IMG/VR virus record: IMGVR_UViG_3300020201_000022
Location: 1 to 55,764 of that record
DNA: 55,764 nucleotides
From: a virus
Taxonomy: Duplodnaviria; Caudoviricetes
Reading direction: 5' to 3' (one strand)
Position numbers and translations under genes: made by a program. The notes below the pieces were generated by a model, which saw nothing but the letters and a program-made list of their open reading frames with translations, made no database searches and was not told where the DNA came from. This document shows positions 27,101 to 46,523 of the stretch, one piece after another. Position 1 is the first letter of the stretch. Every line of letters starts with the position of its first letter.

Positions 27101-30100
27101 GGACTCTACGATGAATACACTGCGAAACACGGTTCGCTACATGACGTAATGAATCGTCGAGCAATGAAGGTCGACCCCGACGCGCCATTCCTGCTTTCCC
27201 TGGAGCATTACAACAGCACTACTAAGCGCGCAGCGAAAGCGGACTTATTTTCGGTCGACACAATCGTTCCTGACGTACGCGCCGACAAAGCAGGCTCGAT
27301 TCCCGAAGCTATTGGAATCACGCTCCACGAAACTGGGGTAGTCGACCTGGACCGCATTGCACAACTGACTGGCAAATCTACCGAAGAGATTGGAGACGAA
27401 CTTGTATCGACTGGACTCGCATTTGACGACCCTAGCACCGGATGGCAATCTGCATCGGAGTATTTGAGCGGTAACACGCGCCGCAAGCTACTTGAGGCAA
27501 AAGCCGCTGCCGCCGCTGATCCTCGCTACGAACCAAACGTCGCAGCGTTAGAGCGCTTGCAGCCGGTCGACATTGAACCGGAAGAGATTGGAATCAAGCT
27601 CGGTTCTCCCTGGGTGCCTACAGCAATCGTCCAACAATTCGCCGCCGAAACTCTCGGTGCGAGAATGGACGAAGTGGAAATCAAGTACACGCCTGAACTT
27701 CAAGAGTGGCGAGTCAATCTTAATTCAATGCTTCACCATCGTCATTCGAACCGAAACGTATGGGGCGTGAAAAACGACAATGACGAAATTGTGTTTTCGT
27801 TTGAACACGCTATCAAAGCGGCATTGCATGGCAAGCAGCCGGTTATCCGTAGCGCAATGTCTGATGAAAATGGGAACCACCCGATCTTAGTGGAGCAAAC
27901 AAACGAAGCCTTGCAGAAAGTGGAAGAGTTAAAAGCGCAGTATAAGGATTGGGTTTGGTCGGATCCAGAGCGAGCGGAGAAACTGGCGAGGATCTACAAC
28001 GACACGCAGAACAACGTAGTCCCTCGGCACTTTGACGGCTCGCATCAGTCGTTCCCAGGCATGAACGCCAATTTCCAAATGCGGCAACTTCAAAAAGACT
28101 TCGTTTGGCGAGTGGTCACAACCGGCAAGGGAATGGCGGCGCACGAAGTCGGTACAGGGAAAACGGCCAGCATGATTGCATCGGCGATGGAGCTGCGCCG
28201 GCTAGGGCTGGCAAAGAAGCCTACGCTCGCATGTCTGAAGGGCAATATCGAGCAGATCACGAAGGAAGCACTCAATCTTTACCCGAACGCCAAGATACTC
28301 AGCACATCCGGCAACTTCGACGCAGCCAATCGCCAAAAAGTGCTCAACCAGATTGCCACAGGCGATTACGACTTGATCATCATGACTCATGACCATCTGG
28401 AAGCGATGAGCCTAAAACCGGAAACACTCTCAAAGTTTATTACGGAAGAAGTCGACGAGATTCAACATGCGATCGATGCCGCCAAAGCATTAGACCATAG
28501 CAATGCGCAAAAGTCTGAGGTCAAAAATCTCGAGAGGAAAAAGCAGGTTTTGAAAGAAAAACTAAAGAAAGCTTTAGCCGAAGAGACGAAGGACAAAGTG
28601 TTTTTTGAGGATACCGGCATCGACCAACTATTCGTCGACGAGGCGCATCATTTCAAAAGCCTGCCTTGCCATTCTCGCGAGAAACTAAAGGGCGTTCCAA
28701 GCGGTCGCTCAGACCGAGCAACCGACATGCTCGCAAAGACTCGCCACATTCTCGACGCCAACAACGGACGCGGAGTTGTATTCGCAACTGGAACGCCAAT
28801 CGTCAACACGATGGCAGAGCTATACGTGATGCAGCGGTATCTGCAACCGGATGCACTCAAGGAACGCGGCCTGCACCACTTCGATAGCTGGAAAGACACC
28901 TACGGCGAAACCAAGACCGATTTTGAGTTCAAGCTGAGTGGCGAAGTCGCTCAGACATCTCGCTTCTCGCAGTTTATGAACCTTCCAGAGTTGCGACATT
29001 TGAGCTCGGAGTTCATGGACATCCAGCGCGCCGATAATCTCAAGCGCGATGACGGCTCTCCGATTATTGTTCGACCAGTCAAGCACGATCAAGTTGTTGT
29101 CAGCGAGACAAACGATTCGGTAAAAGGCATGATGGCTGAAATTGAAAGCCGCGCTCTTGCGCTCCAGACCGCCAGGCTTAGCGGTGTCGACCGAGCGCAG
29201 ATGATGGCTGAAATTGAAAGCCGCGCTCTTGCGCTCAAGGGTAAACGCCCCGGTGGCAAAGGTAAAGACAACATGCTCAGCGTTTGCAACGATGCAAGAG
29301 CTGGATCGATCGATATGCGACTGATCGACGCGGAAGCGGAAGACCACCCCGAAAGCAAAGCCAACCGAGCGGTGCGGGAAGTGGTGCGACTGTATCACGA
29401 CCACCCCGGCAAGACTCAGTGCGTATTTAGCGATCTAGGTATCAATCCGACCAAGGCTAGCGGATTCAGCTTGTTCGCGGATATGAAGCAAAAGCTAGTC
29501 GACGCAGGCATTCCTCATGCCCACATCGTAGACTTTTCCGACGATGCGATGAAAGGCGCAAAGCGACAAGATACGATCGGTGCAATGCGCCGCGGTGATG
29601 CAAGGATTGCGTTTGGCTCGACAAAGCGACTCGGAACCGGCACAAACATTCAACCCAAACTACTCGCGGTTCATCACTTGGACATTCCCTACATTCCCGC
29701 AGCGCTCGAGCAACGCGACGGACGCGGCTATCGTTCCGGCAATCAGAACAAAGATTTTCATGTTTACAAGTATGTCCAACAAGGCTCAGCCGACCCGCTG
29801 TTCTGGCAGATACTTGCCCGCAAAACCGGATTCATCAATCAGTACATGCTTGGCGAAAGCAGCGCTCGCACAATGGAAGACATTAACGCGGAATCGCTGA
29901 CACCCGACGAAATGATTAACGTGGCTAGCGGTGGCTCAGACGCAATGGAACGCATCAGGACAGAGCAGGAAGTCAGTAAGCTACAGAGGGCACGACTACG
30001 GCACGAAGTTGACCAGACGCGGCTAGCGAAGTCGCTTTCCGAAGCTGATGAGCACCGCGCAGAGTTGCGGCAAGAACACGCAGCTCGCAGTCAGGACCAC

Positions 30101-30550
30101 AAACATTTCCAAGCGAACGACGAATGGAGAATCGACATCGGAGGGCGGGCGTTCACCGAACGCAAAGATGCCGAACCCGTACTGGCGGAAGCAATCGCCA
30201 AAGGCAAGGCAAGAATCGAAGCTCTGCCAAGCTATCAGCGTGGACCGGTTAGGGTTGCCACCTATCGCGGCGCGGAACTGATGATCAAGCCCGATGGAAT
30301 GCTGGCGATACAAGGACCAAGCAAAGCGCGGTATGAGAGTGGCCCGTCAATTGCATCGATCGATTACGCGGCGCGATCACTTGCAAAGCGCGTTGAAACC
30401 GCGCAGACTGCAATGGAGAACTACGAAACCGACTTGGTGAAGATGAAGCAACAGGTCGGGGAGTTCCGCAAGCAGCGAGAGTTGCAAGCAGCGACCACAA
30501 AGCTTGAAGCGCTAAAGGGCGAACGTAACGCGGCATTATTAAGGGGCTAA
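24131..30550 (+). CDS. MuF (phage minor head protein) fused to DarB-like N6-adenine methylase and SNF2 helicase
   Basis: AFTIAG, YRTNLQAAY, DARARHEH, PPWDYNCRC (MuF); YLEPAVGGG and NVPF (MTase); HEVGTGKT, VDEAH, FATGTP, EQRDGR (SF2 helicase). Confidence 0.9.
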   Translation: MHRQMDSVVGTSLLGAVGLAEAFLDQIAMNATGDDVWSRNAALEAIRAGVQAFEPLLAAHLSDAVLAGWITGYDNVASQFPPWLQQEFTDSIRRRPPVDPPEFNLFGMFDREPKLRLINVENAAKRLMEKGILTRPEFDSATEQAQRQAFTIAGGLGADTIDRMRFMLNTELNEGPSLKGFTNRITEMLDTSPIGPGHLENVYRTNLQAAYRDGRETLRSDPVVAATFPYQAYIAVHDARARHEHRELEKFGLNGTNIYRSDDPFWDYFTPPWDYNCRCGVQMLTLEQAAARGVKEAQEWLRTGRAPINPQFRYSQIPFDHTEGFGHRGNVGVIMMSSVRAPSGYSKTEPLVINGREYIGGQFIPGDEIQHATASQKKELESGKKAQNDAPSPAKAPKLDGPEPPSHWVNTIATKHGIKLKSGYGAKMFWDPKASSRGWYFQLTGPDGKQSFADRYTDATGAAKHAATLLHARGLNQPVEAKQPKPSEPKPAKERAPKREVKTNQGNWHYQSTEFVSRGAKTKFNDNLAALRTLKTIELEQRPATKDEQAVLSKFVGWGQFPQAFDGNHRNHEYSKWSKERDELLELVGQTAFASARASTINSHYTAPDVIEAHWKMAERLGFKGGKYLEPAVGGGYYIGLMPGHLAEKTNVTAVEMDKTAGAISQALYPAANVHVSPFQNHATPNNFFDLVATNVPFGAIPISDPKYRAMKPMVHDYYFLRSVDTAKPGGLIMHITSAGTMDKLDKRVRKHIDDNCELVSAIRFPGGAHKDNAGTEVVTDMLILRKKNPTIPATTDETPTEAQPGHHRFTGTTVDSLGRIYHWVDGVRVAAPRWDDTVQVPDPDGGDPITINRYFAEHPEQMLGRLDRTGTMYSGNQKNVTKSDNYDEMLQQAIDRLPENIVRTGNQAPDEPDDSRMMVKPGSRFLDGQYVLQDGKIYQHKDGALEPQEFDKPTTERVLGQIAIRDAARDLLTAQRYGGDIEGARERLNGLYDEYTAKHGSLHDVMNRRAMKVDPDAPFLLSLEHYNSTTKRAAKADLFSVDTIVPDVRADKAGSIPEAIGITLHETGVVDLDRIAQLTGKSTEEIGDELVSTGLAFDDPSTGWQSASEYLSGNTRRKLLEAKAAAAADPRYEPNVAALERLQPVDIEPEEIGIKLGSPWVPTAIVQQFAAETLGARMDEVEIKYTPELQEWRVNLNSMLHHRHSNRNVWGVKNDNDEIVFSFEHAIKAALHGKQPVIRSAMSDENGNHPILVEQTNEALQKVEELKAQYKDWVWSDPERAEKLARIYNDTQNNVVPRHFDGSHQSFPGMNANFQMRQLQKDFVWRVVTTGKGMAAHEVGTGKTASMIASAMELRRLGLAKKPTLACLKGNIEQITKEALNLYPNAKILSTSGNFDAANRQKVLNQIATGDYDLIIMTHDHLEAMSLKPETLSKFITEEVDEIQHAIDAAKALDHSNAQKSEVKNLERKKQVLKEKLKKALAEETKDKVFFEDTGIDQLFVDEAHHFKSLPCHSREKLKGVPSGRSDRATDMLAKTRHILDANNGRGVVFATGTPIVNTMAELYVMQRYLQPDALKERGLHHFDSWKDTYGETKTDFEFKLSGEVAQTSRFSQFMNLPELRHLSSEFMDIQRADNLKRDDGSPIIVRPVKHDQVVVSETNDSVKGMMAEIESRALALQTARLSGVDRAQMMAEIESRALALKGKRPGGKGKDNMLSVCNDARAGSIDMRLIDAEAEDHPESKANRAVREVVRLYHDHPGKTQCVFSDLGINPTKASGFSLFADMKQKLVDAGIPHAHIVDFSDDAMKGAKRQDTIGAMRRGDARIAFGSTKRLGTGTNIQPKLLAVHHLDIPYIPAALEQRDGRGYRSGNQNKDFHVYKYVQQGSADPLFWQILARKTGFINQYMLGESSARTMEDINAESLTPDEMINVASGGSDAMERIRTEQEVSKLQRARLRHEVDQTRLAKSLSEADEHRAELRQEHAARSQDHKHFQANDEWRIDIGGRAFTERKDAEPVLAEAIAKGKARIEALPSYQRGPVRVATYRGAELMIKPDGMLAIQGPSKARYESGPSIASIDYAARSLAKRVETAQTAMENYETDLVKMKQQVGEFRKQRELQAATTKLEALKGERNAALLRG
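29129..29236. repeat. 36-bp direct repeat flanking a 36-bp insert that is the reverse complement of 26291-26326
   Basis: 29129-29164 = 29201-29236; 29165-29200 is the exact reverse complement of ctgcgctcggtcgacaccgctaagcctggcggtctg. Confidence 0.95.
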
Positions 30551-35842: not shown

Positions 35843-36673
35843 ATGGGAATTGAAGCAAAAGAAATAGGCAACGAAGAGTATCACAGTCTGCCAGGCATCA
35901 GCAACTCGAAGCTGAGCGTCTTGATTGAAGATCCGCGTGAGTATTTTCACCAGTTTCTCAGCGGGCAGTATGTCAAGAAATCGAAGGATCACTTTGATTT
36001 TGGTCATGCGGTTCATGAAATCTGCCTGCAAGGACTGCATAACGTGCAAGTCATTCCAGCGGAAGTGCTGACGAAGGACGGCAAGCGGGCGGGCAACGCA
36101 TGGCAGCAGTATGCGGCAGAAAATAGCGGCTCGATTTTGATGAAAGCAGCGGACTATCGAGCGGTGATGAATTGCGTCGAAGCGGTCAAGCGGCATCCAG
36201 TTGCGGGTGAGCTATTGAGCGCTCCAGGTTATTCGGAGCGTTACTTTGAGACGACTACCCTAAACGGAACCATCAAGCGATGTAAGCCCGACAGGGTGTG
36301 TGATTGGAACGGCAAGAAGATCGTGGTCGACTTGAAAACGACAACCTGCACACTGGCGCGAAAATTTGTGCGGTCGATCGAGGATTTCGGATACGCTCGG
36401 CAAGAATGCTTCTACCGGGATGTTCTCGAAGCGAATGACGTATTCGTGGATGCGTTTGTGTTCATCGCGGTCAAGGACAGTGCGCCTCACTGCGTCGACT
36501 GCTACTCCATCAAAAACGAGTGGCGAACGATGGCTCGCAAGGAAATCAATGACGCAATCGATGACCTGGAAGAACGGACGGCGACGGGCAATTGGGAATC
36601 GAAAACGGCCAACTTCATCGTTGAGTTGGCACCACCGGGAAACTTAAAATTTAAGGGTGAATACTCATTATGA
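35843..36673 (+). CDS. RecE/exonuclease VIII-like PD-(D/E)xK nuclease
   Basis: YH...ISNS.L, FG.A.H, CKPD, VDLKTT, Y..Q..FY, FVFIAV; adjacent to RecT. Confidence 0.9.
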   Translation: MGIEAKEIGNEEYHSLPGISNSKLSVLIEDPREYFHQFLSGQYVKKSKDHFDFGHAVHEICLQGLHNVQVIPAEVLTKDGKRAGNAWQQYAAENSGSILMKAADYRAVMNCVEAVKRHPVAGELLSAPGYSERYFETTTLNGTIKRCKPDRVCDWNGKKIVVDLKTTTCTLARKFVRSIEDFGYARQECFYRDVLEANDVFVDAFVFIAVKDSAPHCVDCYSIKNEWRTMARKEINDAIDDLEERTATGNWESKTANFIVELAPPGNLKFKGEYSL

Positions 36674-37638
36674 CCAACGGAGCAAAAGCAACCGCGATTG
36701 CGGTAGATCAACTGGGAGAGAAGCGGAGCGCCCCAGTCAACGAGCTGCGCAAGTATCTCGAAAAGTTGAAGCCACAACTGCAAGCGGCTTTACCGAAACA
36801 TTTGAACGCAGACCGCATGGCTCGGATTGCAATGACGGAGTTCAGCAAGAACCCAGCGCTGCAAGACTGCACGTTCCAATCGATCGCGGCATGTGTGATG
36901 ACCGCTTCGCAACTCGGTCTGGAAATCGGCGTGGGCGGTCAAGCCTACATGATTCCTTACGGGACCGTGGCAACGTTCGTGCCTGGTTGGAAAGGGCTGA
37001 TTGATCTTGTATCGCGGGCTGGTCGATCGAGCGTTTGGACGGGTGCGGTATTTGATGGCGACGTGTTCGATTGGGAGCTGGGCGATACGCCATTCCTAAA
37101 GCACAAGCCGATGGGCGAGAACGATCCCGACAAGATGCTGTTCGCTTATGCGATCGGCAGAGTCAATGGTTCGGATTGTCCAATCATTGAATGCTGGCCT
37201 AACGCTCGAATCAAGAAGCATTTTGACAAGAACGTGATTCCAAAGTTGCAGCGCAGCCACTACGCCAACAAGCACTGGGAAATGTACGCTCGCAAGGTCG
37301 TATTGTTGCAAGTGCTCAAGTATCTACCTCAGTCGATCGAGTTGCACGCGGCGGTTGAGATTGCACACGCGGCGGATGAAGGACGACCGGTTTCGATCGA
37401 TGCCGACTTTGTGACCATCGAGCACCAAACGGAAGAAAAGCAGCAATTGCCACTGGTTGCCAATCCAATGCCAGTAGGAGCCAGCGAGCCGATGGCGGAC
37501 TTCTGGAAAAAAATGGCGGCGCTCAATGAAGACCGCAAGCTAAGAGAGTGGTCGGACGAGATCGCGAGAACGCCAGCGCTGAACGACGAAGAGAGAGACT
37601 TGCTGTGGGTTGAAATCACGCGGCGGGTTGGAGGCTAA
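36670..37638 (+). CDS. recT: RecT single-strand annealing protein
   Basis: ALPKHL.ADRM.R, QLGLE, AY.IPY, GWKGLIDL..R, MYARK.V...LKYLP.S. Confidence 0.92.
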   Translation: MTNGAKATAIAVDQLGEKRSAPVNELRKYLEKLKPQLQAALPKHLNADRMARIAMTEFSKNPALQDCTFQSIAACVMTASQLGLEIGVGGQAYMIPYGTVATFVPGWKGLIDLVSRAGRSSVWTGAVFDGDVFDWELGDTPFLKHKPMGENDPDKMLFAYAIGRVNGSDCPIIECWPNARIKKHFDKNVIPKLQRSHYANKHWEMYARKVVLLQVLKYLPQSIELHAAVEIAHAADEGRPVSIDADFVTIEHQTEEKQQLPLVANPMPVGASEPMADFWKKMAALNEDRKLREWSDEIARTPALNDEERDLLWVEITRRVGG

Positions 37639-38517: not shown

Positions 38518-38709
38518 ATGGTTAGTGAAGAAATAATTTTAGATCGTGATCGTGTTCACTGCATGGTTTTGGTTTTGACGGAACTACTAAAGGTCGAATC
38601 GCATTTTCAGTTTAAGTTGCGGTTCTCCAACAAAGAAACCGGCGAAAGGACGCTAACAATCGTCCCGCACTGTACGCCAGTCGAAATCAAGCTGGAAAGC
38701 TCGCGATGA
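38518..38709 (+). CDS. Hypothetical protein whose stop overlaps attC1
   Basis: TGA 38707-38709 overlaps GAAC. Confidence 0.55.
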   Translation: MVSEEIILDRDRVHCMVLVLTELLKVESHFQFKLRFSNKETGERTLTIVPHCTPVEIKLESSR

Positions 38710-38791
38710 ACGTTTTGATTCAGGAAGCCGCGACCGCTGCGGCTTCCCTCCACGTTGGAGATGTTAGCGGCTTTCCTGCAATCATTTGTTC
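38708..38791 (-). mobile_element. attC-like site 1
   Basis: GAAC gttt tgatt-cagg...cctg-C-aatca ttt GTTC; 84 bp. Confidence 0.85.
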
Positions 38792-38811
38792 TCTGACTCG
38801 TGAGGTTTGAT

Positions 38812-39006
38812 ATGGCGAAAATGATACACGATGATTTCGAGGCTTGGATTCGCGATCGGTCCCGTGGCTGCATGGAGCCGTGCGAAATTGACGAGCTGTG
38901 TAAGGGTGATTTGGATTTTGAATCTGGCGACTACACGTTTCGCGATCTGGCTGTACAAGGACAGTGGGAGGCATGGCAGGCCGCAATTGAGAGCGCTCGC
39001 AGGTAG
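38812..39006 (+). CDS. Cassette gene, small phage-type protein
   Basis: FEAW...G.Y....Q..WEAWQAA; GAGG RBS. Confidence 0.65.
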   Translation: MAKMIHDDFEAWIRDRSRGCMEPCEIDELCKGDLDFESGDYTFRDLAVQGQWEAWQAAIESARR

Positions 39007-39013
39007 AGTCAGA

Positions 39014-39097
39014 GAACGCTCGCATTGAAAACGCGGGCGACGAAATATTGGACCACACCGATAGACCTGATTCGCACGCGTTTTCAATGCGTTGTTA
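39014..39097 (-). mobile_element. attC-like site 2
   Basis: GAAC gct cgcattgaaaacgcg...cgcgttttcaatgcg tt GTTA; 84 bp; no clear extrahelical base. Confidence 0.75.
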
Positions 39098-39134
39098 CCG
39101 CGTCGGAAAACTATTTCGGGAAATACGCAAACAT

Positions 39135-39178
39135 TTCGTAGCTACGCTATTGATTCGTAGCTACGCTACCGATACAAT
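39135..39178 (+). promoter_or_regulatory. sigma70-like promoter with overlapping 15-bp direct repeats
   Basis: TTGATT (39150)-17 bp-TACAAT (39173); ttcgtagctacgcta at 39135 and 39154. Confidence 0.7.
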
Positions 39179-39227
39179 TAGGTATCGCAACAACGCGACG
39201 CAGTGAAACGCCAAACGGGAAAAGACG

Positions 39228-39602
39228 ATGACCACAACAAGCAGGATCTTGACTGATGGACGAAAGCTCGAAATCGAATCAGCGAACCGCTCCGTGAAGG
39301 AATGGAGAGTTTCGATCGACGGTAATTGTGTTGGTGAGGTAAATGGGGTTTACGCTTTCAATGAAAGCCAAATGCCCGTAAGGGATGGCGTGCGTTTTAC
39401 GCACTTCGTGAAGTTCGCTCATGATTCCTCTTTCTGCCTGCCAATTACCTCTAGCGAGTGGTCGCAACTCGAACCGCAGTGGGAAGCCGGGGGAATCGTT
39501 GACGAGGGCGCACGCAAGACCCGACCAGCAGATGCAATGCGGGCAGGTGCTCGCCGAGAATCCTTAATGGAATTCAACGATGAAAATGTGGAGTGCGGTT
39601 GA
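39228..39602 (+). CDS. Cassette gene, hypothetical
   Basis: 124 aa, downstream of the cassette promoter. Confidence 0.65.
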   Translation: MTTTSRILTDGRKLEIESANRSVKEWRVSIDGNCVGEVNGVYAFNESQMPVRDGVRFTHFVKFAHDSSFCLPITSSEWSQLEPQWEAGGIVDEGARKTRPADAMRAGARRESLMEFNDENVECG

Positions 39603-39793
39603 TGCCACGTCATAGCCTCGGCACAAAAGCCCCCAGCGGCGCAAGCCGCGTTATCCGCTGCAAAATCAGTGAAGCGGAAGAGCATGCGGCGAAAGCCGCT
39701 GTGAATGAAGGCGAAAGCCTGAGTGAGCTAATTCGGATCGCGTTAGCTCGTGAAGTCAAACGCCGCGAAAAGGCTGCAAGTCGATCGCGGTAA
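39602..39793 (+). CDS. Ribbon-helix-helix/CopG-like regulator
   Basis: IRCKIS.AE...A...GESLSELIR.AL; TGATG coupling; stop overlaps attC3. Confidence 0.7.
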   Translation: MPRHSLGTKAPSGASRVIRCKISEAEEHAAKAAVNEGESLSELIRIALAREVKRREKAASRSR

Positions 39794-39876
39794 CGTCAGC
39801 AATAATCCGCGTCGGGAGGCGCGACTATGACCAAACCAAAAGACACCAATCCCGACTCGGATTCATTGCGTTGTTC
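39791..39876 (-). mobile_element. attC-like site 3 (identical core to attC6)
   Basis: TAAC gtca gcaat-aatccg...cggatt-C-attgc gtt GTTC; 86 bp. Confidence 0.9.
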
Positions 39877-40147
39877 GTCAGCGAATTACGCTGACGGCAC
39901 ACCAATAACTCCAGAGTGGTTGGACTCGATATTCACGAGCGAAACGATGAACGGACATTCCCTACTGATCGACGGCTATGGCGATCTAATCGAATTGTAT
40001 CTTGCAGAAGATATTGACAAGCCGGGCGTTTATCGTGCGTCAATGATGCAGAGCGAGCCAGCGGACCTTATTGCGATTACTGGTCGCGTTTTCGTTACGC
40101 GCGGAAGCGTGCATTTGCTATTGAATGCGTTGGGGCATTTCGTCTGA
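39827..40147 (+). CDS. Cassette gene starting inside attC3
   Basis: GGAGG RBS and ATG lie in the attC loop. Confidence 0.7.
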   Translation: MTKPKDTNPDSDSLRCSSANYADGTPITPEWLDSIFTSETMNGHSLLIDGYGDLIELYLAEDIDKPGVYRASMMQSEPADLIAITGRVFVTRGSVHLLLNALGHFV

Positions 40148-40148
40148 C

Positions 40149-40232
40149 GAACGTTGAATTCATTTGGTTCGCGGGTTTGAGTTCGCCCCGCACAAACCAA
40201 CGTAATGCGAACTCAAATGCAATTATTTGTTC
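40149..40232 (-). mobile_element. attC-like site 4
   Basis: GAAC gttg aatt-catttg-gttcgc...gcgaac-T-caaatg-C-aatt attt GTTC; 84 bp. Confidence 0.9.
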
Positions 40233-40252
40233 GTCGTTTCGGGAGTGCAGGC

Positions 40253-41140
40253 ATGGCAGAGAATAGCAAGATAGAGTGGACCGACCACACGTTTAATCCT
40301 TGGATGGGTTGCACAAAAGTTAGCCCTGCGTGCAAGAATTGTTACGCCGAACGCGATATGGATCACCGCTACGGCAAGGTTCAGTGGGGGCCAAACGGAA
40401 CGCGAGTAAAAACAAGCGTTGATAATTGGAGGAAGCCATTGCGATGGAATCGCGACGCACAAGAAAAGGGGGTTCGCTATCGCGTCTTTTGCGCATCACT
40501 TGCGGATGTGTTTGAGGATTGGGATGGACCCATGTTGACACATACCGGAGAGCAATACGAATTGACGATGGCAGGCGTTCGGCGCGAGTTGTTTCAGTTG
40601 ATCGACAACACGCCAAATCTCGATTGGTTACTGTTGACCAAGCGACCTGAAAACATCACAGAGCTATGGGTCGGTGGAACACGGTCGAACGTCTGGCTCG
40701 GAACGTCGATCGAGAATCAAGAGTGGGCCGATAAGCGATTGCCGCATTTGCATCACGTCAAGCGACAAGGGTTTGTCAACACAACATTCGTTTCAGCAGA
40801 ACCTTTGGTCGGGCCAATCATGTTGAAAGGTGAGCAAGACGGTTTGACGTACAACCACCTTGGACGCATGGGAATCGATTGGGTCATCACTGGTGGCGAA
40901 AGCGGACCGGACGCAAGGCCATGCAAGCCAGAATGGTTCCAGTCGCTACGCGACCAATGCGTAGCAGCGGGAACGGCGTTCCATTTCAAGCAGTGGGGCG
41001 AATTCGACGCAGAGGAAAAGCGAGTCGGAAAAAAGAACGCTGGCCGTCTTCTTGACGGTCGGACTCATGACGGTCTACCGATCGTTGCGGTTGGCGGGCT
41101 GAAAAGTATTTCGCACAAAATGGCCGAAATTGATAAATAG
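40253..41140 (+). CDS. Phage Gp37/Gp68 (DUF5131) radical-SAM-like protein
   Basis: SKIEWTDHTFNPW.GC.KVSP.C.NCYA, LLTKRP, WVI.GGESG, FKQWG. Confidence 0.9.
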   Translation: MAENSKIEWTDHTFNPWMGCTKVSPACKNCYAERDMDHRYGKVQWGPNGTRVKTSVDNWRKPLRWNRDAQEKGVRYRVFCASLADVFEDWDGPMLTHTGEQYELTMAGVRRELFQLIDNTPNLDWLLLTKRPENITELWVGGTRSNVWLGTSIENQEWADKRLPHLHHVKRQGFVNTTFVSAEPLVGPIMLKGEQDGLTYNHLGRMGIDWVITGGESGPDARPCKPEWFQSLRDQCVAAGTAFHFKQWGEFDAEEKRVGKKNAGRLLDGRTHDGLPIVAVGGLKSISHKMAEIDK

Positions 41141-41174
41141 CACTTGCTTATTCGGCCAATGTGGCCGATACTAT
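41121..41174 (+). promoter_or_regulatory. Putative promoter with TCGGCCA/TGGCCGA operator repeats
   Basis: TTGCTT 41144, GATACT/TACTAT 41167-41174; inverted repeat 41152-41168 plus a copy at 41121. Confidence 0.55.
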
Positions 41175-41225
41175 AGGCATGGCGAGTGAGGGTCACCCGC
41201 CGAAAACAAAAATTGGAGAACAAAC

Positions 41226-41540
41226 ATGAGCAAGACAGTACGAGTGATCGGCGACACAAAAGCAATCAAAGAAACACTCAAGAAGCACGGCTTTTTGTGG
41301 AACGCAGAAAAGTCGCGATGGCATAAATCGGTGAGCGACACGCAAGCTGAGCAACTGCTGAACGCAGACACACAGGACGCAACGCTGGCTGCGTTCCAGT
41401 GGAAATATCGAGGGTGCCAAGTGTCGGTGGGCGACACAGTGGTTTTCACGAGCAAGAAATTTGCGACTCTGGCTTCTGATGGCCAGTCGGACCCCGACGC
41501 TTTGGATGCAGATGGGCAGCCAAGATGGATGAGCTATTAA
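41226..41540 (+). CDS. Cassette gene, DUF5710-like
   Basis: GDT..IKE.LK..GF.WN.EK..W.K. Confidence 0.65.
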   Translation: MSKTVRVIGDTKAIKETLKKHGFLWNAEKSRWHKSVSDTQAEQLLNADTQDATLAAFQWKYRGCQVSVGDTVVFTSKKFATLASDGQSDPDALDADGQPRWMSY

Positions 41541-41752
41541 TGATTGATCCAACGAAGTACGGCACGATCACTGAGACGGCTCAGGCCGCCGGGATCGGTC
41601 GCGGTGGATTGCGTCACGCAATTGATCGCGGCGAGATCACGCAAACCGTCGAAACAATCGGTGGCACAACGCTGGTGAGTGTGGCGGCTGCGTTGCGTTG
41701 GTCAAAAAACCGGCCACCGCGAGGGCCAAAGCGGCAGGACAAATCCGCATAA
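41540..41752 (+). CDS. Small HTH protein (near-identical inverted copy at 55540-55752)
   Basis: TITETAQAAGIGR..LR.AI.RG; stop overlaps attC5. Confidence 0.75.
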   Translation: MIDPTKYGTITETAQAAGIGRGGLRHAIDRGEITQTVETIGGTTLVSVAAALRWSKNRPPRGPKRQDKSA

Positions 41753-41834
41753 CGTTTTGATTCATCGAGCAACGGAAAGTAAACAATGACTACAAAAAAC
41801 GCTCAACCCGTTGCTTCGATGCAATCAATTGTTC
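41750..41834 (-). mobile_element. attC-like site 5
   Basis: TAAC gttt tgatt-catcga-gcaacgg...ccgttgc-T-tcgatg-C-aatca att GTTC; 85 bp. Confidence 0.9.
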
Positions 41835-42223
41835 GTCGTCTCCCTAATGCGGTAAAGCAGACGACGCCAACCAATTGTTTCCAAGCATGTGTTGCAACAG
41901 TGCTTGGCGTGCCGATTGAAGACGTGCCCGAAGCGTGTGATGGTGCCAAGTGGGATTGGGATGCGTTCCAAGACTGGCTGGCGTTGCGAGGGCTGCAAGC
42001 GATTGAAGTCGGATTCGGAAATGGTGGAACCATTTACCCAGTGCGTCATCCGGTGTTGTGCATTGTCACCGGAAGATCGCCGCGAGAATGCACAACAGGC
42101 CGTCACGCGGTCGTAGGCGAATTACTAGGGCTGGAAGGATTCCGATTGCTGCATGATCCGCATCCGTCTGATGTGTGGATTGACGGCGAGCCAACGCACG
42201 CTGTGTTTTTTGTTTCGATTTGA
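41786..42223 (+). CDS. Cassette gene, papain/C39-like Cys-His-Asp protein, starting inside attC5
   Basis: Q....NCFQACVA..L, HAVV, HDPHP. Confidence 0.65.
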   Translation: MTTKNAQPVASMQSIVRRLPNAVKQTTPTNCFQACVATVLGVPIEDVPEACDGAKWDWDAFQDWLALRGLQAIEVGFGNGGTIYPVRHPVLCIVTGRSPRECTTGRHAVVGELLGLEGFRLLHDPHPSDVWIDGEPTHAVFFVSI

Positions 42224-42230
42224 GTACGAC

Positions 42231-42316
42231 GAACGTCAGCAATAATCCGCGTCGGGAGGCGCGACTATGACCAAACCAAAAGACACCAATCCCGACTCGG
42301 ATTCATTGCGTTGTTC
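42231..42316 (-). mobile_element. attC-like site 6
   Basis: Same sequence as attC3 from AAC to GTTC. Confidence 0.9.
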
Positions 42317-42500
42317 TGTCGCTACGCCAGTCGGGGTTGTGCCGTGCAAGGTCGGGACGCAACCGTGGCTGGTCGTGGTAAACAGAAGACGCAAAACAAT
42401 TAAGGTCGGCGACGTTATTTTAATACGCGAGGCCGGCGTAGGACACAAATGGATTCGCGTTCGTGTCGAGAATCTCGAACCTTTGCGAGTTAGTCGATAG
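42267..42500 (+). CDS. Cassette gene starting inside attC6
   Basis: Shares MTKPKDTNPDSDSLRCS with the 39827 ORF, then unrelated. Confidence 0.65.
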   Translation: MTKPKDTNPDSDSLRCSVATPVGVVPCKVGTQPWLVVVNRRRKTIKVGDVILIREAGVGHKWIRVRVENLEPLRVSR

Positions 42501-42583
42501 AACGATTACAATCACCGGGAACGCGGTGACAAACTAACCATTTCAAAAGACTTCGCCGCGTTCTCCGGTGCATTGTCTTGTTC
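42500..42583 (-). mobile_element. attC-like site 7
   Basis: Minus strand reads GAACAAGACAAT-G-CACCGG-A-GAACGCGG...CCGCGTTC-CCGGTG-ATTGTAATCGTTC; 84 bp. Confidence 0.9.
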
Positions 42584-42609
42584 TAACGCCAGAGTTTACG
42601 GAAACGAAA

Positions 42610-43029
42610 ATGATTCGCGAAATACTAAAAGAAGCGGCTGATTTATTTAAGAAGCTAGAAGAGGCAGAGTACGCAGAAAAGCTTACTAAGTCCTACGAGG
42701 TCGGCAAAAATAATGCAGTGGAGTTGCCGTTCGCTCCCGGAGATACCGTGTATCAATACGGAATTGGAGATCATGAATTTTCGGAGTATCGCGTTGAAGC
42801 GGAAAATAGATTGCATTGGTGTCGTACACGATACCGCTGGGCCGATCAGGACGACATCGAGACGCTCGCATTGACGAAGGCTGAAGCCGCGACGAAGTTT
42901 GCCGTTTGGCTTGGGACTGCCAGCCAGGAAGATAAAGACGAAGCCGCAAAAGGCATTGCGGAATCGCTTGATTACCACCGGAAGAACCTTGCGGATTACG
43001 AACTTATTAGCGCGGCTATTGGTCGTTAG
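42610..43029 (+). CDS. Cassette gene, hypothetical
   Basis: VELPF.PGDTVY phage-type motif; stop overlaps the attI-like site. Confidence 0.65.
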   Translation: MIREILKEAADLFKKLEEAEYAEKLTKSYEVGKNNAVELPFAPGDTVYQYGIGDHEFSEYRVEAENRLHWCRTRYRWADQDDIETLALTKAEAATKFAVWLGTASQEDKDEAAKGIAESLDYHRKNLADYELISAAIGR

Positions 43030-43062
43030 AACAACTTATTATGACGCTACGCGCAGAATAAT
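43029..43062 (-). mobile_element. attI-like array end site
   Basis: AACAACTTATT-N10-GCGCA-GAATAA, conserved at 55511-55541; not a full palindrome. Confidence 0.6.
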
Positions 43063-43173
43063 TCTCGAGGCAGTGCCGTTGATATCGACGCAGATTGCGA
43101 ACCCTCAGTTGCGAGTTTTTGCGGGTTAGAAAACTCGATTTATTAGTGATCGAAAACGGATAGGTAAAACAGC

Positions 43174-43989
43174 ATGAAGCGGGACGCTTTTACACACCCC
43201 AAAACGCTCGACTTGGCATCGCGATTAGACATTAGCCGCGCTCACGCGATCGGTATCCTGGCGCTACTCTGCGACTTCACGGCGACCTACGCTCCGCAGG
43301 GTGACATCGGTAAACATCGCGATGGTGCGATAGCTCGCGGGTGTGACTGGGTAGGTAATCCAGGGGAATTTATTCAAGCCCTACTGGACTCCGGGTGGTT
43401 GGACCTAGACCCCTCACATAGACTGGTTGTGCACGATTGGGAAGACCATTGCGAGCAGTGGGTTAGACTCAAATTGGCTAAACTGAAACTAGCCTTTATA
43501 GTGGTAAAATCCTCAGCAGAGCCTATTGCAGAGCCTATTGCAGAGCGCTCAGCAGAAGCCAGCGCCTCGCGTGACCTATCCTATCCTATCCTATCCCCTC
43601 CTAGCCTAGCCAAGCCTTCACCCTCCTCTACCCTCCTATCCTCAGCAGTGCCGACTAGATCGATGGACGAGGACGAGGGAATTTTGAAAGTTGATTTTGA
43701 TGATTGCTTACGATCGTGCTTGCGGTTGAGCAAGGCGTGTCTTGCACGATCGCACAAGCTGTCAGCCGACGAAATCTGGAAGCTCGTCTGGATGGCGATG
43801 GCGCTGGGGCAGGATGGCCTCATCGCGGAAGTAGCTACGAAGATTCACAACCGAGAAGTCACGAAGCCCAAAGCGTATATCGACGCGTCATTGCGAAAGG
43901 CGTGTATCGAGCGAAACACCGATATGCTTCGTGTCGCAAGGTGCGCACCCGAAAGACCGAAACCAATTACGGCCAACGCGGATATTTAA
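43174..43989 (+). CDS. Phage replication initiator with internal iteron-like repeats
   Basis: HPKT..LA..L....A.G.L..L, L..SGWLD...VHDW..H; gcagagcctatt and cctat repeats at 43516-43595. Confidence 0.75.
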   Translation: MKRDAFTHPKTLDLASRLDISRAHAIGILALLCDFTATYAPQGDIGKHRDGAIARGCDWVGNPGEFIQALLDSGWLDLDPSHRLVVHDWEDHCEQWVRLKLAKLKLAFIVVKSSAEPIAEPIAERSAEASASRDLSYPILSPPSLAKPSPSSTLLSSAVPTRSMDEDEGILKVDFDDCLRSCLRLSKACLARSHKLSADEIWKLVWMAMALGQDGLIAEVATKIHNREVTKPKAYIDASLRKACIERNTDMLRVARCAPERPKPITANADI

Positions 43990-44694: not shown

Positions 44695-45534
44695 ATGCGT
44701 TCTCCGTCGATCCTCACCGCTGCAATCGCGTGCCTGCTGTCGAGCAGCGCGTTCGGCCAGATTTTCCCGAATGCGTTTTGGAATGCTCCCGCGAAAGTTA
44801 GTTCATCCTGCCCTGGTGGGGTTTGCCCGACGGGTGTGACAACTGCAAATACCGCGCCGGGTCACTGGAGTTACCCAGGCTCAATCGATTCGCATCTCGA
44901 AGGAACCCACGGCGTTTCGACGGCGGGCATGAGCTTTCAGCAAAAACGGAACCTGCATGATTCGCTCCACGAAAGCCCGATGTCGGATCAGTTCAGGCAA
45001 TATCCGGCAGTTTCAAAATCCACCAGCTACGGTTCGGCGGGCTCCTCAGTGCGCGGCTACGGCTCAAGCGGATCTTCGTTCGGTCGCGACTACGACGGCG
45101 CTGTGATCACCTCGGTTGGCCCACCTTTGGCACCACCACTGCCTCAAGCGGCAGTAAACGACGTTTCGGCGCTCAAGGTCGGCGATAGGGTCGCTTTCAG
45201 GCGTGCGTTGCTCGATGCCGGTCGCAAAGCCAGGGATTGCGGGGATATTACTTCGCTCGAATTTTTCATGCTTTCCGCGTCGAGTCGCAACCCTAGAACG
45301 CTCGAGAAAATGCAAGCGGCTGTACACGAAGCAGCGATCGAAGAAGGCCTTGCAACGACTCAGGCGATCAACTGGGACGGGTTGATTGAGTTCATCGAGA
45401 AGCTTATTCCGATCATTATTAAGTTGATTGATTTGTTTTCAATGAGTCAACCTATGCAATCGTTCGATTTTGTGCCCGTCCAGCAGTATGCATACAGCCC
45501 ACCGTTGCAGGATTGCTTCGCGTCGGCGGTCTAG
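44695..45534 (+). CDS. Secreted protein with CPGGVC motif and C-terminal amphipathic helix
   Basis: Signal peptide ending SSAFG; INWDGLIEFIEKLIPIIIKLIDLF. Confidence 0.7.
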   Translation: MRSPSILTAAIACLLSSSAFGQIFPNAFWNAPAKVSSSCPGGVCPTGVTTANTAPGHWSYPGSIDSHLEGTHGVSTAGMSFQQKRNLHDSLHESPMSDQFRQYPAVSKSTSYGSAGSSVRGYGSSGSSFGRDYDGAVITSVGPPLAPPLPQAAVNDVSALKVGDRVAFRRALLDAGRKARDCGDITSLEFFMLSASSRNPRTLEKMQAAVHEAAIEEGLATTQAINWDGLIEFIEKLIPIIIKLIDLFSMSQPMQSFDFVPVQQYAYSPPLQDCFASAV

Positions 45535-45572
45535 TCTCTGCGTTCGAACCTGTCGGCTGGAGCAATCAGATA

Positions 45573-46523
45573 ATGGACGACGAAAATAGATTCCATTTGC
45601 CACCGGATTTATTCATTGACGAATCGCAAGTCTTCCCACTGTCGGACGAGTTGCCGAAGGGTGCCTGGCACATTACCGCGAAGCTGCGCGAGCTGCACAA
45701 TCGCAAGGTCGACGGAGCCAACGTCATCGTTGCAGTCAACGATACGGCCGGTCAAGCCGATCACCCGTTCCTGCCAAAGCAACTGGCCGGCAAAGACTTC
45801 ACCAACTCACGCTATGGACTGCGCGACACACATGGGCACGGAACGCATTGCCAAGGAATCGTCATCAGTGTCGCTCCAAAGGCGAGTCTTGTAACCGCGA
45901 AAGTGCTCGGCGACTCCGGCAGTGGTTCAACGACTGGGATCAATGCAGGACGAGTGTGGGCAGCGCAGCAAGGCGCGGATGTGATCAGCGAATCACTCGG
46001 AGACGGCGGCGGACCACCACTCGCGGCAGACCTTGCGGCCTACGATCAAGCCTACGCAGCCGGTGCATCAATTTGCGTAGCAGCATTAGGCAACGCTGGC
46101 TACAACGGTCGTTCCACCATCGGGCGACCTGGTTCTTACTCGACTCGCAATCACGGCATCGCGGCTATCGGATCCGATTGGCGTACGATCGCGGGTTTCT
46201 CCAGTGGTGGGCCTCAAGCTCGCTTCGCCGCTCCCGGCGCTGGAATCATCAGTTGTCGACCTGGTGCCGGTTGGGTCACGATGAGCGGTACGTCGATGGC
46301 GACTCCGTGGCAAGCTGGCCTTTACGCGTTGCTGATCGGCTATCGCCGTGGCATCGGATTGCCCGACTTGAAAGGGCCTGAAGAATGGTCCGACTGGTTC
46401 GTTACCGAGAAGCTGACCGTCGATCTCGGTGCGCCTGGCTGGGATCCGAGATATGGCAACGGCCTGGTCGACGTGAACAAGGTTGCTGATTATCTTCTGG
46501 AGCGCACAACACAAAATGTTTAA
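45573..46523 (+). CDS. Subtilisin-like S8 serine peptidase
   Basis: VAVNDT, HGHGTHC, AALGN, FSS.GP, SGTSMATP, YGNG. Confidence 0.92.
   Translation: MDDENRFHLPPDLFIDESQVFPLSDELPKGAWHITAKLRELHNRKVDGANVIVAVNDTAGQADHPFLPKQLAGKDFTNSRYGLRDTHGHGTHCQGIVISVAPKASLVTAKVLGDSGSGSTTGINAGRVWAAQQGADVISESLGDGGGPPLAADLAAYDQAYAAGASICVAALGNAGYNGRSTIGRPGSYSTRNHGIAAIGSDWRTIAGFSSGGPQARFAAPGAGIISCRPGAGWVTMSGTSMATPWQAGLYALLIGYRRGIGLPDLKGPEEWSDWFVTEKLTVDLGAPGWDPRYGNGLVDVNKVADYLLERTTQNV

Follow-up and report, generated by a model that had tools for sequence, protein, structure and literature searches.

The window (the whole 55,764-nt stretch of viral DNA analysed here; Duplodnaviria, Caudoviricetes, IMG/VR record IMGVR_UViG_3300020201_000022) contains seven imperfect palindromes, s1 to s7, interspersed with open reading frames (ORFs) on the + strand (Table 1). 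This region, 38709-43075, is likely an integrase-less array of integron cassettes in the genome of a tailed phage that probably infects Planctomycetota. It would consist of seven cassettes, each made of an attC site with one to three ORFs and bounded by the AA/C points of successive sites. The last cassette would abut an attI-like site of the type known from IntI-encoding phage integrons.

Table 1. Positions of the array, its parts and the neighboring phage genes in the window (CM, covariance model).
Feature	Position	Strand	Evidence and remarks
PD-(D/E)XK exonuclease	35843-36673	+	Pfam DUF3799, 9.8e-19; upstream of array
RecT	36670-37638	+	Pfam RecT, 3.8e-29; upstream of array
attC s1	38709-38790	+ (bottom-strand orientation)	CM 57.9 bits; fold; flanks GTTCTCTGACTC / GAGTCAGAGAAC (inverted-repeat pair I9)
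Cassette 1	38711-39016	+	s1; 64-aa ORF 38812-39006
attC s2	39015-39096	+	Near-perfect palindrome without bulges; CM 44.8 bits; inverted repeat I2, 20 nt, 95%
Cassette 2	39017-39793	+	s2; repeats 39124-39161; 124-aa ORF 39228-39602; Arc-like RHH 39593-39793
attC s3	39792-39875	+	CM 56.3 bits; loop with SD-like GGGAGG and ATG at 39827
Cassette 3	39794-40151	+	s3; 106-aa ORF 39827-40147, start in loop
attC s4	40150-40231	+	CM 56.1 bits; flanks read directly
Cassette 4	40152-41752	+	s4; DUF5131 40253-41140; 104 aa 41226-41540; 75 aa 41525-41752
attC s5	41751-41833	+	CM 77.1 bits; loop ATG at 41786; flanks GTTCGTCGT / ACGACGAAC
Cassette 5	41753-42233	+	s5; 145-aa ORF 41786-42223; phrog_5845, 1.6e-17, function unknown
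attC s6	42232-42315	+	CM 56.3 bits; loop ATG at 42267
Cassette 6	42234-42502	+	s6; 77-aa ORF 42267-42500, start in loop
attC s7	42501-42582	+	CM 74.1 bits on +, 13 bits on -; flanks GTTCTAACG / CGTTAGAAC at 43024-43032
Cassette 7	42503-43031	+	s7; 139-aa ORF 42610-43029
Array end, attI-like	43030-43075	+	Crossover AAC 43030-43032, then AACTTATTA...CGCGCAGAATA; GCGCAG motif
Replication initiator	43174-43989	+	phrog_9474, 8.7e-20

The exonuclease and RecT together form a phage recombination module (35843-37638), and the replication initiator occupies the place that intI holds in IntI-bearing relatives. The location between recT and rep, proposed by a first-pass annotation made from the sequence alone, is confirmed by these neighbors. 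Within the replication initiator, CCTATCC-type repeats (family D2) are found at 43565-43642. Among the cargo labels of that annotation, DUF5131 was confirmed (cassette 4, 4e-77) and RHH was supported as Arc-like (cassette 2, phrog_6506, 9.8e-06), while the evidence for HTH is weak (E 0.009). The C39-like label was not supported, its sole Pfam match being papain-like and below threshold (E 0.14). Other arrays among the loci compared contained none of the window's 10 cassette proteins. Cassette 4 is atypical, with three ORFs and non-complementary ends. Promoter-like sites are no commoner than in shuffled sequences (6 versus 6.3), and terminator-like sites show no clear enrichment (16 versus 10.0 +/- 3.5).

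The attC family and the polarity of the ORFs

The seven sites are 82-84 nt long from AAC to GTT (the 84-86 bp originally reported include flanking bases) and share one polarity (38709-42582). In arm complementarity, they are the best seven among the 565 AAC...GTT pairs (70-100 nt) of the whole window; only s1 and s4 fall inside the range of shuffled maxima. The motif pattern derived from s1-s7 matches the window four times, with 0.00 matches expected from 100 shuffles. A covariance model built from the family and applied to both strands recovers s1-s7 on + only, at 44.8-77.1 bits, the next match reaching 13 bits. The training rows of this model included the window's own seven sites. An Rfam scan returned no matches, and its library gave no test of attC identity.

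In the common fold, AAC/GTT pairing gives way to an internal loop; then come ~5-6 bp, a bulged C, another 6 bp and a bulged T, and finally a stem of 7 bp or more that ends in a variable loop. Folding each site placed both bulges of s1, s4, s5 and s7 on the + strand's 3' arm. In s3 and s6 there is one bulge, with a C.T mismatch where the others have the T bulge, and s2 has no bulge at all. The folds show the strand asymmetry of attC sites (unpaired bases on one arm, a central spacer that stays unpaired and a variable loop at the tip), except that s2 lacks the bulges. The sites have conserved arm ends of 14-24 nt in common (repeat families D3 and D19). Sites s3 and s6 share an 85-nt stretch with 100% identity (family D1); it runs exactly from AAC to GTTC, yet the flanks of both sites differ. 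A canonical R box is not present, as the R' boxes read GTTCTCT, GTTACCG, GTTCGTC and GTTCTAA.

When 86 family members, drawn from the window and from viral contigs and bacterial genomes, are aligned, pairing reaches 94.7%, with compensatory changes at 16 of the 22 pairs; it drops to only 32-40% when the partner is slid by 1-3 columns. G-U pairs are nearly absent among the 1891 pair cells, which fits a structure working as DNA. The AAC...GTT end triplets, present in 7/7 window sites, are invariant across the 86 members, which is partly built in, since they were part of the search pattern. The T bulge is kept in at least 90% of the members, though it was absent from that pattern.

The covariance model identifies 334 sites in 93 viral loci. 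The same family forms arrays beside TIGR02249 integron integrases in Planctomycetota genomes. In genome G002, an intI scoring 362 bits is followed by ~29 model matches within 20 kb and by five further ones 38 kb further out, all of one polarity. The array lies upstream of intI in 16 of the 17 loci with both, and the model orientation there reads toward intI. Adjacency to intI is found in the relatives (G002, G005, other bacterial loci and seven viral loci) and not in the window. Sites s1-s7 belong to the attC family flanking intI in Planctomycetota chromosomes; their recombination by IntI is inferred.

The TIGR02249 cut-off (265 bits) is passed by all seven IntI-like proteins of the viral loci, which score 267-399 bits. 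One record, G006, is a complete 39.8-kb phage genome with direct terminal repeats (CheckV, 100% complete), encoding portal, capsid-protease, large terminase and phage integrase, in addition to IntI and an array. Arrays of up to ~10 sites are present on dozens of viral contigs, 11 of which are rated at least 90% complete, and IntI is found in only two of these 11.

The + strand of the window is the attC bottom strand, based on two independent criteria: the arm with the unpaired bases and the reading direction relative to intI. Every ORF is on this strand, and all ORFs are therefore inverted versus the bacterial arrangement. Canonical polarity, with the ORF upstream of its own attC and on the top strand, is not met in the window. 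Of its six cassette intervals, four are inverted, none is canonical and two are unclear. Viral loci have 90 inverted, three canonical and 89 unclear intervals (total 182), and bacterial loci 11, 145 and 91, respectively (total 247). ORF inversion is general for phage arrays. A loop ATG opens an ORF at 83/272 viral sites; a loop start codon with an SD-like motif occurs at 64/272 viral sites, while it is rare at bacterial ones (4/344). Three of the seven window loops have an SD-like motif and a start codon, and a fourth has an ATG without the motif.

The first-pass annotation had described seven AAC...GTT palindromes, most of them with the features of canonical attC sites on the minus strand, and all genes inverted relative to attC. 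The palindromes, the polarity and the inversion held, the latter two by the bulge arm and the direction versus intI, whereas the sequence is not canonical (C and T unpaired, R box not GTTRRRY). It had missed the ORFs starting inside several attC loops and the attI-like array end (43030-43075).

Crossover point, array end and natural variants

The crossover is located by comparison of arrays: it falls at the AAC end of each site, the canonical AA/C. In six of eight cassette pairs shared by different arrays, homology starts 0 to -10 nt upstream of the upstream AAC and stops 2-22 nt beyond the downstream AAC.

Complementary cassette ends had also been claimed, and all five pairs quoted are present. 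In cassette 1, 38788-38799 is complementary to 39006-39017 (12 nt, 100%; pair I9). Four of the six neighboring-site pairs have at least six complementary bases past the triplet; the s6/s7 flanks are complementary at 5/6 positions and the s4/s5 flanks at none, and the flank after s7 is complementary to 43024-43032. Five of the seven cassettes thus have perfect ends over 6-9 nt, one matches at 5/6 and cassette 4 has none. Cognate flanks are complementary over at least 4 nt in 135/182 viral cases (74%, versus 7% of random pairs) and in 190/250 bacterial ones (76%, versus 5%).

At the array end, a core of GAAC followed by AACTTATTA, together with the GCGCAG motif, is common to the window and to loci L039, L067 and L049, where it sits after the last cassette, just ahead of the intI-homologous region. 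After the last cassette of bacterial arrays, this core (AAYTTATT) was found in 0/41. The segment is homologous to the attI-like site of IntI-encoding phage integrons, and its function as attI is inferred. In the 55.8-kb record, there were no matches to the tyrosine/serine recombinase models TIGR02249, PF00589 and PF00239; IntI would therefore have to act in trans. The locus is not a complete integron (intI, attI and cassettes), as the attI-like site and cassettes are present and intI is absent. The seven + sites do meet the definition of a CALIN (at least two attC of one polarity with no intI nearby).

Contigs from microbial mats contain variants without exactly cassettes 4-5, 5-6 or 6-7, the joints skipping 2082, 750 and 798 nt, respectively. 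The joint from 42230 to 43029 uses the AAC point of the array end. Cassette-precise variants are present in natural samples, while recombination itself was not directly observed. The joints rest on assembled contigs whose shorter side is merely 21-30 nt, and related phages that share cassettes, instead of this genome, may be their source. As s3 and s6 are identical, the 2082-nt joint can be read in more than one way: either cassettes 4-5 were deleted, or cassette 3 is present as a circle or in tandem. Two other joints (41840 to 43029 and 39018 to 39789) are not cassette-precise. Several foreign sequences are joined exactly at AAC(G) in runs holding the window phage. The identity of s3 and s6 with differing flanks is unexplained by crossovers at a single end. 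Shuffling of accessory genes, as suggested earlier, is supported by the homology blocks breaking at the AAC end and by the three cassette-precise deletion joints.

Proposed explanation, rivals and known systems

In the proposed explanation, the + strand is the bottom strand and would be the one folded and cut; with all ORFs on +, attC therefore precedes the gene along transcription, the reverse of bacterial cassettes. Cassettes are presumed to be expressed by read-through of the phage operon, from recT through the array to rep, although expression is untested. Three ORFs would initiate at the SD-like motif and ATG within the attC loop. An IntI provided in trans would carry out excision, attI insertion and reshuffling; it would most likely come from a related phage or prophage of the phage IntI clade, or else from a chromosomal integron of the host.

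A first rival is that the array is a frozen relic of a phage integron, no longer recombining, whose hairpins persist as intergenic translation-start or RNA-structure elements. The absence of IntI from the window and from all but two of the 11 near-complete records supports this idea, as do the lost bulges of s2, the lost complementary ends of cassette 4 and the ORF-opening ATG in viral loops. It is nevertheless unlikely, given the three cassette-precise joints and the foreign sequences joined at AAC(G) in phage-holding runs, the perfect ends retained in most cassettes, the intact attI-like core and the s3/s6 identity, which suggests a recent event.

A second rival assumes that homologous or RecT-mediated annealing at conserved repeats shuffles the cassettes without any integron integrase. 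Such annealing has been proposed for the promoter-stem-loop cassettes of T4-type phages. The exonuclease/RecT pair directly upstream and the conserved arm ends agree with it, and exchange within repeats would be consistent with the two-sided limits of the s3/s6 identity and with the anomalies of cassette 4. However, homology blocks stop at the AAC triplet and not within the repeats, the cassette-specific complementary flanks are the mark of circular intermediates opened at a single point, no such sites occur in the 23 loci of RecT relatives, and the same sites flank IntI. We consider this rival very unlikely.

RNA-level elements unrelated to integrons, placed between early genes as RNase III sites, terminators or translational operators, would account for long hairpins between co-transcribed genes, some of whose loops contain an SD-like motif and ATG, but are highly unlikely given the near absence of G-U pairs, the identical family beside intI in bacteria in the opposite transcriptional orientation, complementary ends that span each gene and serve no RNA role, and the lack of clear terminator enrichment.

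Beyond an integrase-less cassette array, a bolder reading is that planctomycete phages keep an integron system of their own; taken jointly, its points could as well be wrong as right. Such a system would comprise a dedicated IntI clade and an attI type of its own, with cassettes, attI and intI following one another in that order, compactly and co-directionally, and the ORFs of the phage cassette pool would be flipped relative to attC. The chemistry would be common with host integrons, while the flip would bar expression across pools (antisense both ways). Translation of the downstream gene would start in the attC loop, recruited for this role. Most phages, the window phage included, would hold attI and cassettes only and borrow IntI in trans.

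Integrons are regarded as bacterial devices, and reports from phages have so far been sporadic captures. The attC family described here, typical of a single bacterial phylum, recurs across dozens of viral contigs, and part of the viral set has its own integrase lineage and docking site. If the reading is true, phages would run a parallel cassette economy for accessory genes, a natural search ground for anti-defence functions. Gene polarity versus attC would be a simple barrier between phage and host gene pools, and antisense landing could silence host defence or toxin cassettes in phages. The sites and integrases provide a concrete, testable set for the coupling of strand choice with cassette expression.

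As a correction to the initial description, in which integrons were considered rare in phages, phage-borne integrons and integrase-less attC clusters have already been reported. In deposited genomes, Qi et al. (2023, PMC9892861) counted 17 CALINs, with integron components present in 21 phages, and phage attC sites were recombined by IntI1. These are likewise attC arrays, in temperate and virulent phages, mostly without intI. They are small and mostly of bacterial-type orientation, whereas the phage arrays of the window family reach ~10 sites, with systematically inverted ORFs and a phage-specific IntI group and attI type. That study includes no planctomycete case (the word occurs 0 times). In the literature searched, no paper was found on a phage lineage combining flipped cassettes, an own IntI clade and an own attI. 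Phage-borne integrons are already known; this combination is apparently new.

The sedentary chromosomal integrons of Planctomycetota (e.g., G002 and loci L276 and L176) have the same attC family by covariance model and are also alike in polarity versus intI, crossover end and complementary cassette ends. They differ in the opposite orientation of their ORFs and in the sequence after the last cassette.

Like class 1 and Vibrio attC sites, the window sites are imperfect hairpins in which some bases are extrahelical, the central spacer is unpaired and the terminal loop varies. Among attC sites, conservation is limited to the cleavage-site triplet, and length varies from 57 to 141 bp (Loot et al. 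2017, PMC5371416); the window sites have this triplet and a length within the range. The unpaired bottom-strand bases of canonical attC are T and G, unlike the C and T of the window, and past GTT, the window R box is cassette-specific over 6-9 further bp.

"Inverted integrase" integrons also exist, in which intI and cassettes are co-directional, intI being the flipped part. The phage arrays share with them the co-directional intI and cassette ORFs. In the phages, however, intI is standard in position and polarity relative to attC, and it is the cassette ORFs that are flipped instead.

attC sites of a structured family

The seven sites of the array, s1 to s7 (Table), rank as the top seven by arm complementarity among the 565 AAC...GTT pairs of the window; individually, the two weakest, s1 and s4, do not rise above shuffled maxima. 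Folded as DNA, the sites follow a common plan. The AAC pairs with the GTT, and beyond this pairing come a small internal loop, some 5-6 bp, a C bulge, another 6 bp, a T bulge, at least 7 bp of stem and a variable loop. On the + strand, it is the 3' arm that bears the bulges. No explanation was found for the lack of bulges in s2, nor for the 100% identity of s3 and s6 across 85 nt, bounded at both ends. Through this identity, ORFs of 106 and 77 aa that are otherwise unrelated have their first 17 residues in common (MTKPKDTNPDSDSLRCS), and similar attC-encoded N-termini (MTKP.., MNKP..) are present in further viral arrays.

A motif pattern derived from four of the window sites matched at least 119 viral-contig and at least 120 bacterial-genome-contig stretches. 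The match is 81-83 nt long in 104 of 136 viral cases. The arm score identifies as real hairpins 93 of these 136 viral matches and 90 of the 152 genomic ones; the remainder look chance-like. Of the 93 genome loci in which a site was validated, 82 carry record titles that place them in Planctomycetota. In an alignment of 86 sequences, the proposed structure is 94.7% paired, against only 32-40% in slid controls, and compensatory changes occur in 16 of 22 pairs. Pattern-fixed columns are unable to vary, and the covariation comes from the free ones. G-U pairs are nearly absent, a scarcity that would be consistent with a structure acting as DNA.

The covariance model recovers exactly s1-s7 in the window, all on the + strand, at 45-77 bits, with the next match at 13 bits; the window sites are among its training rows. 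It gives no eighth hairpin past 43032, where the region is attI-like instead. In total, it identified 334 sites in 93 viral loci. A template scanner found 656 sites over all loci versus none in 100 shuffled loci, with sites on both strands in three loci only. Rfam families, searched at gathering thresholds, have no match in the window. Two other site finders were rejected: minimum-free-energy ranking by itself could not separate the sites from the GC-rich background, and nhmmer, which lacks structure, missed most of them (10 versus ~29 by the covariance model in L276, a locus of the planctomycete genome G002). L276 (5663000-5682999) also contains one ~360-nt cassette repeated at least eight times (cluster C1).

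Of the five planctomycete genomes with the family, three encode an integron integrase that scores above the TIGR02249 cut-off. In G002 (intI, 362 bits), ~29 sites over 20 kb start within ~1.4 kb, and five further sites lie 38 kb out, all of one polarity; at L176, the sites extend at least 38 kb away from intI. In a second planctomycete, G005, four sites are immediately upstream of intI (431 bits). The array is upstream of intI, with the orientation read by the model pointing toward it, in 16 of the 17 loci with both. This geometry, together with the 3'-arm location of the unpaired bases, indicates that the model orientation is the attC bottom strand. The + strand of the window is this bottom strand, and the sites are integron attC and members of the family. 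G002 also has eight near-identical tyrosine-recombinase genes (e.g., 6130264-6131067), which score ~121 bits against the integron-integrase model, under the cut-off, and possibly represent a multicopy mobile element.

Positions of the array sites, cassettes, neighboring genes and contig joints (window coordinates)
Feature	Position	Details
s1	38709-38790	AAC...GTT imperfect palindrome
s2	39015-39096	AAC...GTT; near-perfect palindrome
s3	39792-39875	AAC...GTT; C.T mismatch replaces T bulge
s4	40150-40231	AAC...GTT imperfect palindrome
s5	41751-41833	AAC...GTT imperfect palindrome
s6	42232-42315	AAC...GTT; C.T mismatch replaces T bulge
s7	42501-42582	AAC...GTT imperfect palindrome
Cassette 1	38711-39016	
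Cassette 2	39017-39793	
Cassette 3	39794-40151	
Cassette 4	40152-41752	
Cassette 5	41753-42233	
Cassette 6	42234-42502	
Cassette 7	42503-43031	
Large terminase		phrog_979, 1.4e-105
Tape-measure-like protein		
2139-aa ORF	24131-30550	
PD-(D/E)XK exonuclease and RecT	35843-37638	
Replication initiator	43174-43986	phrog_9474, 8.7e-20
Subtilase-family peptidase	45513-46523	Peptidase_S8, 1.1e-29
Joint, cassettes 4+5	40145 to 42228	2082 nt skipped; runs X5, X7; shorter side 21-22 nt; 9 common letters GACGAACGT
Joint, cassettes 5+6	41750 to 42501	750 nt skipped; run X7; shorter side 30 nt
Joint, cassettes 6+7	42230 to 43029	798 nt skipped; run X7; shorter side 26 nt; terminal AAC used

Gene orientation, cassette boundaries and natural variants

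The first-pass annotation had proposed that the genes are inverted relative to attC. This held, and the inversion is general among phage arrays, when the coding strand is approximated by the longest ORF filling each inter-site interval. Four of the six window intervals are inverted, none is canonical and two are unclear; the corresponding numbers are 90, 3 and 89 of 182 intervals in viral loci, and 11, 145 and 91 of 247 in bacterial loci. In phage arrays, attC therefore lies ahead of its own gene. A loop ATG begins an ORF of 40 aa or longer in 83 of 272 viral sites, 64 of these with a Shine-Dalgarno (SD)-like motif, and in 29 of 344 bacterial sites, four with such a motif. Window loop starts are located at 39827, 41786 and 42267, with a fourth at 40205 lacking an SD-like motif.

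The reason for the flip remains hypothetical: phage and host cassette pools may be incompatible for expression, intI may be coupled to the phage transcript, or the attC loop may serve as a translation start. Replication direction was dropped as a cause, since the initiator is downstream of the array in the window and the replisome organizer upstream of it in the phage genome G006, so that the bottom strand would serve as template for the leading strand in one of the two genomes and for the lagging strand in the other. L199, a 5-kb contig of a MAG titled Microbacteriaceae, also has six sites oriented in the inverted, phage-type way (three same, none opposite) and is probably a prophage or a piece of phage sequence binned in error.

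The complementarity of cassette ends, also claimed initially, was confirmed, all quoted pairs being present. The exceptions are cassette 4 (s4 to s5), whose unmatched ends have no explanation, and s6/s7, with one mismatch. Requiring at least 4 nt between the flank following GTT and the flank preceding the next AAC of successive sites, 74% of cognate viral flanks (135/182) are complementary, in comparison to 7% of random pairs and 11% of the flanks of one site; the bacterial values are 76% (190/250), 5% and 11%. Eight cassettes common to different arrays were used to locate the crossover. In six, homology starts 0 to -10 nt from the upstream AAC and ends 2-22 nt beyond the downstream AAC; in one, it continues through the downstream site, and one is uninformative. 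These limits establish the crossover position: the mobile unit is an attC with the DNA following it, cut between the AA and the C of the bottom strand, like canonical integrons. When the ten window cassette proteins were compared with all fetched loci by tblastn, DUF5131 was the sole one with matches (L010, L105), neither of them flanked by sites.

The region is present in nine microbial-mat sequencing runs, all as assembled contigs and with no RNA run listed, and four of them were compared. Three contig joints coincide with cassette pairs (Table), and at loose contig ends, other sequences are attached exactly at the AAC(G) of s1, s4, s5 and s6. As s3 and s6 are identical, the joint skipping 2082 nt could alternatively reflect a circle or a tandem copy of cassette 3. 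Short-sided joints may originate from other organisms or repeats, and two joints off the cassette boundaries (41840 to 43029 and 39018 to 39789) are unexplained. Cassette-precise variants do exist in natural samples, on the evidence of short-sided contig joints. In the dominant form of run X4 (depth 36.6), 39200-39601 in cassette 2 is swapped for 379 other letters, which replace the 124-aa gene and leave the Arc-like gene in place. Upstream of both genes, cassette 2 has two 19-nt direct repeats with the palindrome GTAGCTAC (39124-39161), and a promoter-like site (39150-39178) is situated among these repeats, upstream of the Arc-like gene. It is conceivable that cassette 2 is a self-regulated module, an inference for which expression is untested.

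Phage integrases and the attI-like end

CheckV rated the window, the whole IMG/VR virus record (55,764 bp), as 100% complete. Its genes include those listed in the Table; neither an integron integrase nor any other recombinase of the tyrosine or serine type is encoded. Five CCTATCC-type tandem repeats spaced by 10-25 nt (43565-43642) might be iterons of an origin located inside the initiator gene. As a query, the initiator retrieved nothing from viral contigs; RecT retrieved 23 viral-contig loci (33-60% identity), none with attC-type sites. This left no true relatives of the phage for a comparison of cassette order.

Seven viral loci encode a protein above the TIGR02249 cut-off (267-399 bits), and in all seven the intI-homologous region is downstream of the array and co-directional. 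Among them, G006 has direct terminal repeats, is rated 100% complete and encodes a portal, capsid-protease, large terminase, minor tail protein, replisome organizer, phage integrase and IntI, and it has an array. A 20-sequence IntI tree, midpoint-rooted for drawing only, groups six of the seven viral sequences in a split (98/98 support) separate from the 13 bacterial ones. Two or more sites were found in 67 viral loci, and the census covered 50 of these, corresponding to 49 records. Four of the records encode IntI; among the 11 with a completeness rating of 90% or higher, two do. An integrase-less array is the usual state in the 49 phage records examined.

The last window cassette ends with CGTTAGAAC (43024-43032), followed by AACTTATTA...CGCGCAGAATA. 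This core recurs, together with the GCGCAG motif, after the last cassette of L039, L067 and L049, just before the intI-homologous region. AAYTTATT follows the last cassette in five of 55 viral arrays with a recognizable end, with near variants in about six more (by eye), and in none of 41 bacterial arrays. This shared core indicates that the window retains a phage-type attI, attI-like by sequence homology, and the replication gene occupies the place expected for intI. At least two other conserved post-array families, one starting with TTTGAATTATC (then CGTC or AG)...ATATCAC and the other being AAGTATTATATGGAATT...ATATCAC, were observed in phage loci L036, L041, L042, L054, L057, L063, L098, L108 and L142, and also in L035, L088, L125, L056 and L140. 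No intI was found in the loci of these two types, which are possibly further attI types.

In the proposed model, the cassettes would be transcribed along with the recT-to-rep operon, an inference without expression data; promoter-like sites are at chance level. IntI may be supplied in trans, by a related (pro)phage or by the host.

Comparison with known integrons

Phage-borne integrons and CALINs are known (PMC9892861); the 17 CALINs reported are mostly in bacterial orientation and include no planctomycete case. Full-text literature searches returned no description of integrons in planctomycete phages, of inverted cassettes in phages or of a phage-specific integron lineage that has them; supplementary files were not covered, and the tables of PMC9892861 may list more CALINs. 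Phage-borne integrons are therefore already published, and a phage-specific lineage with inverted cassettes is apparently new. Published attC sites have extrahelical bases, an unpaired spacer and a variable loop, are 57-141 bp long and conserve only the cleavage-site triplet (PMC5371416). The present family shares all of these features, its length falling inside this range. It differs from them in that its unpaired bases are C and T, and its R box past the GTT is cassette-specific instead of GTTRRRY.
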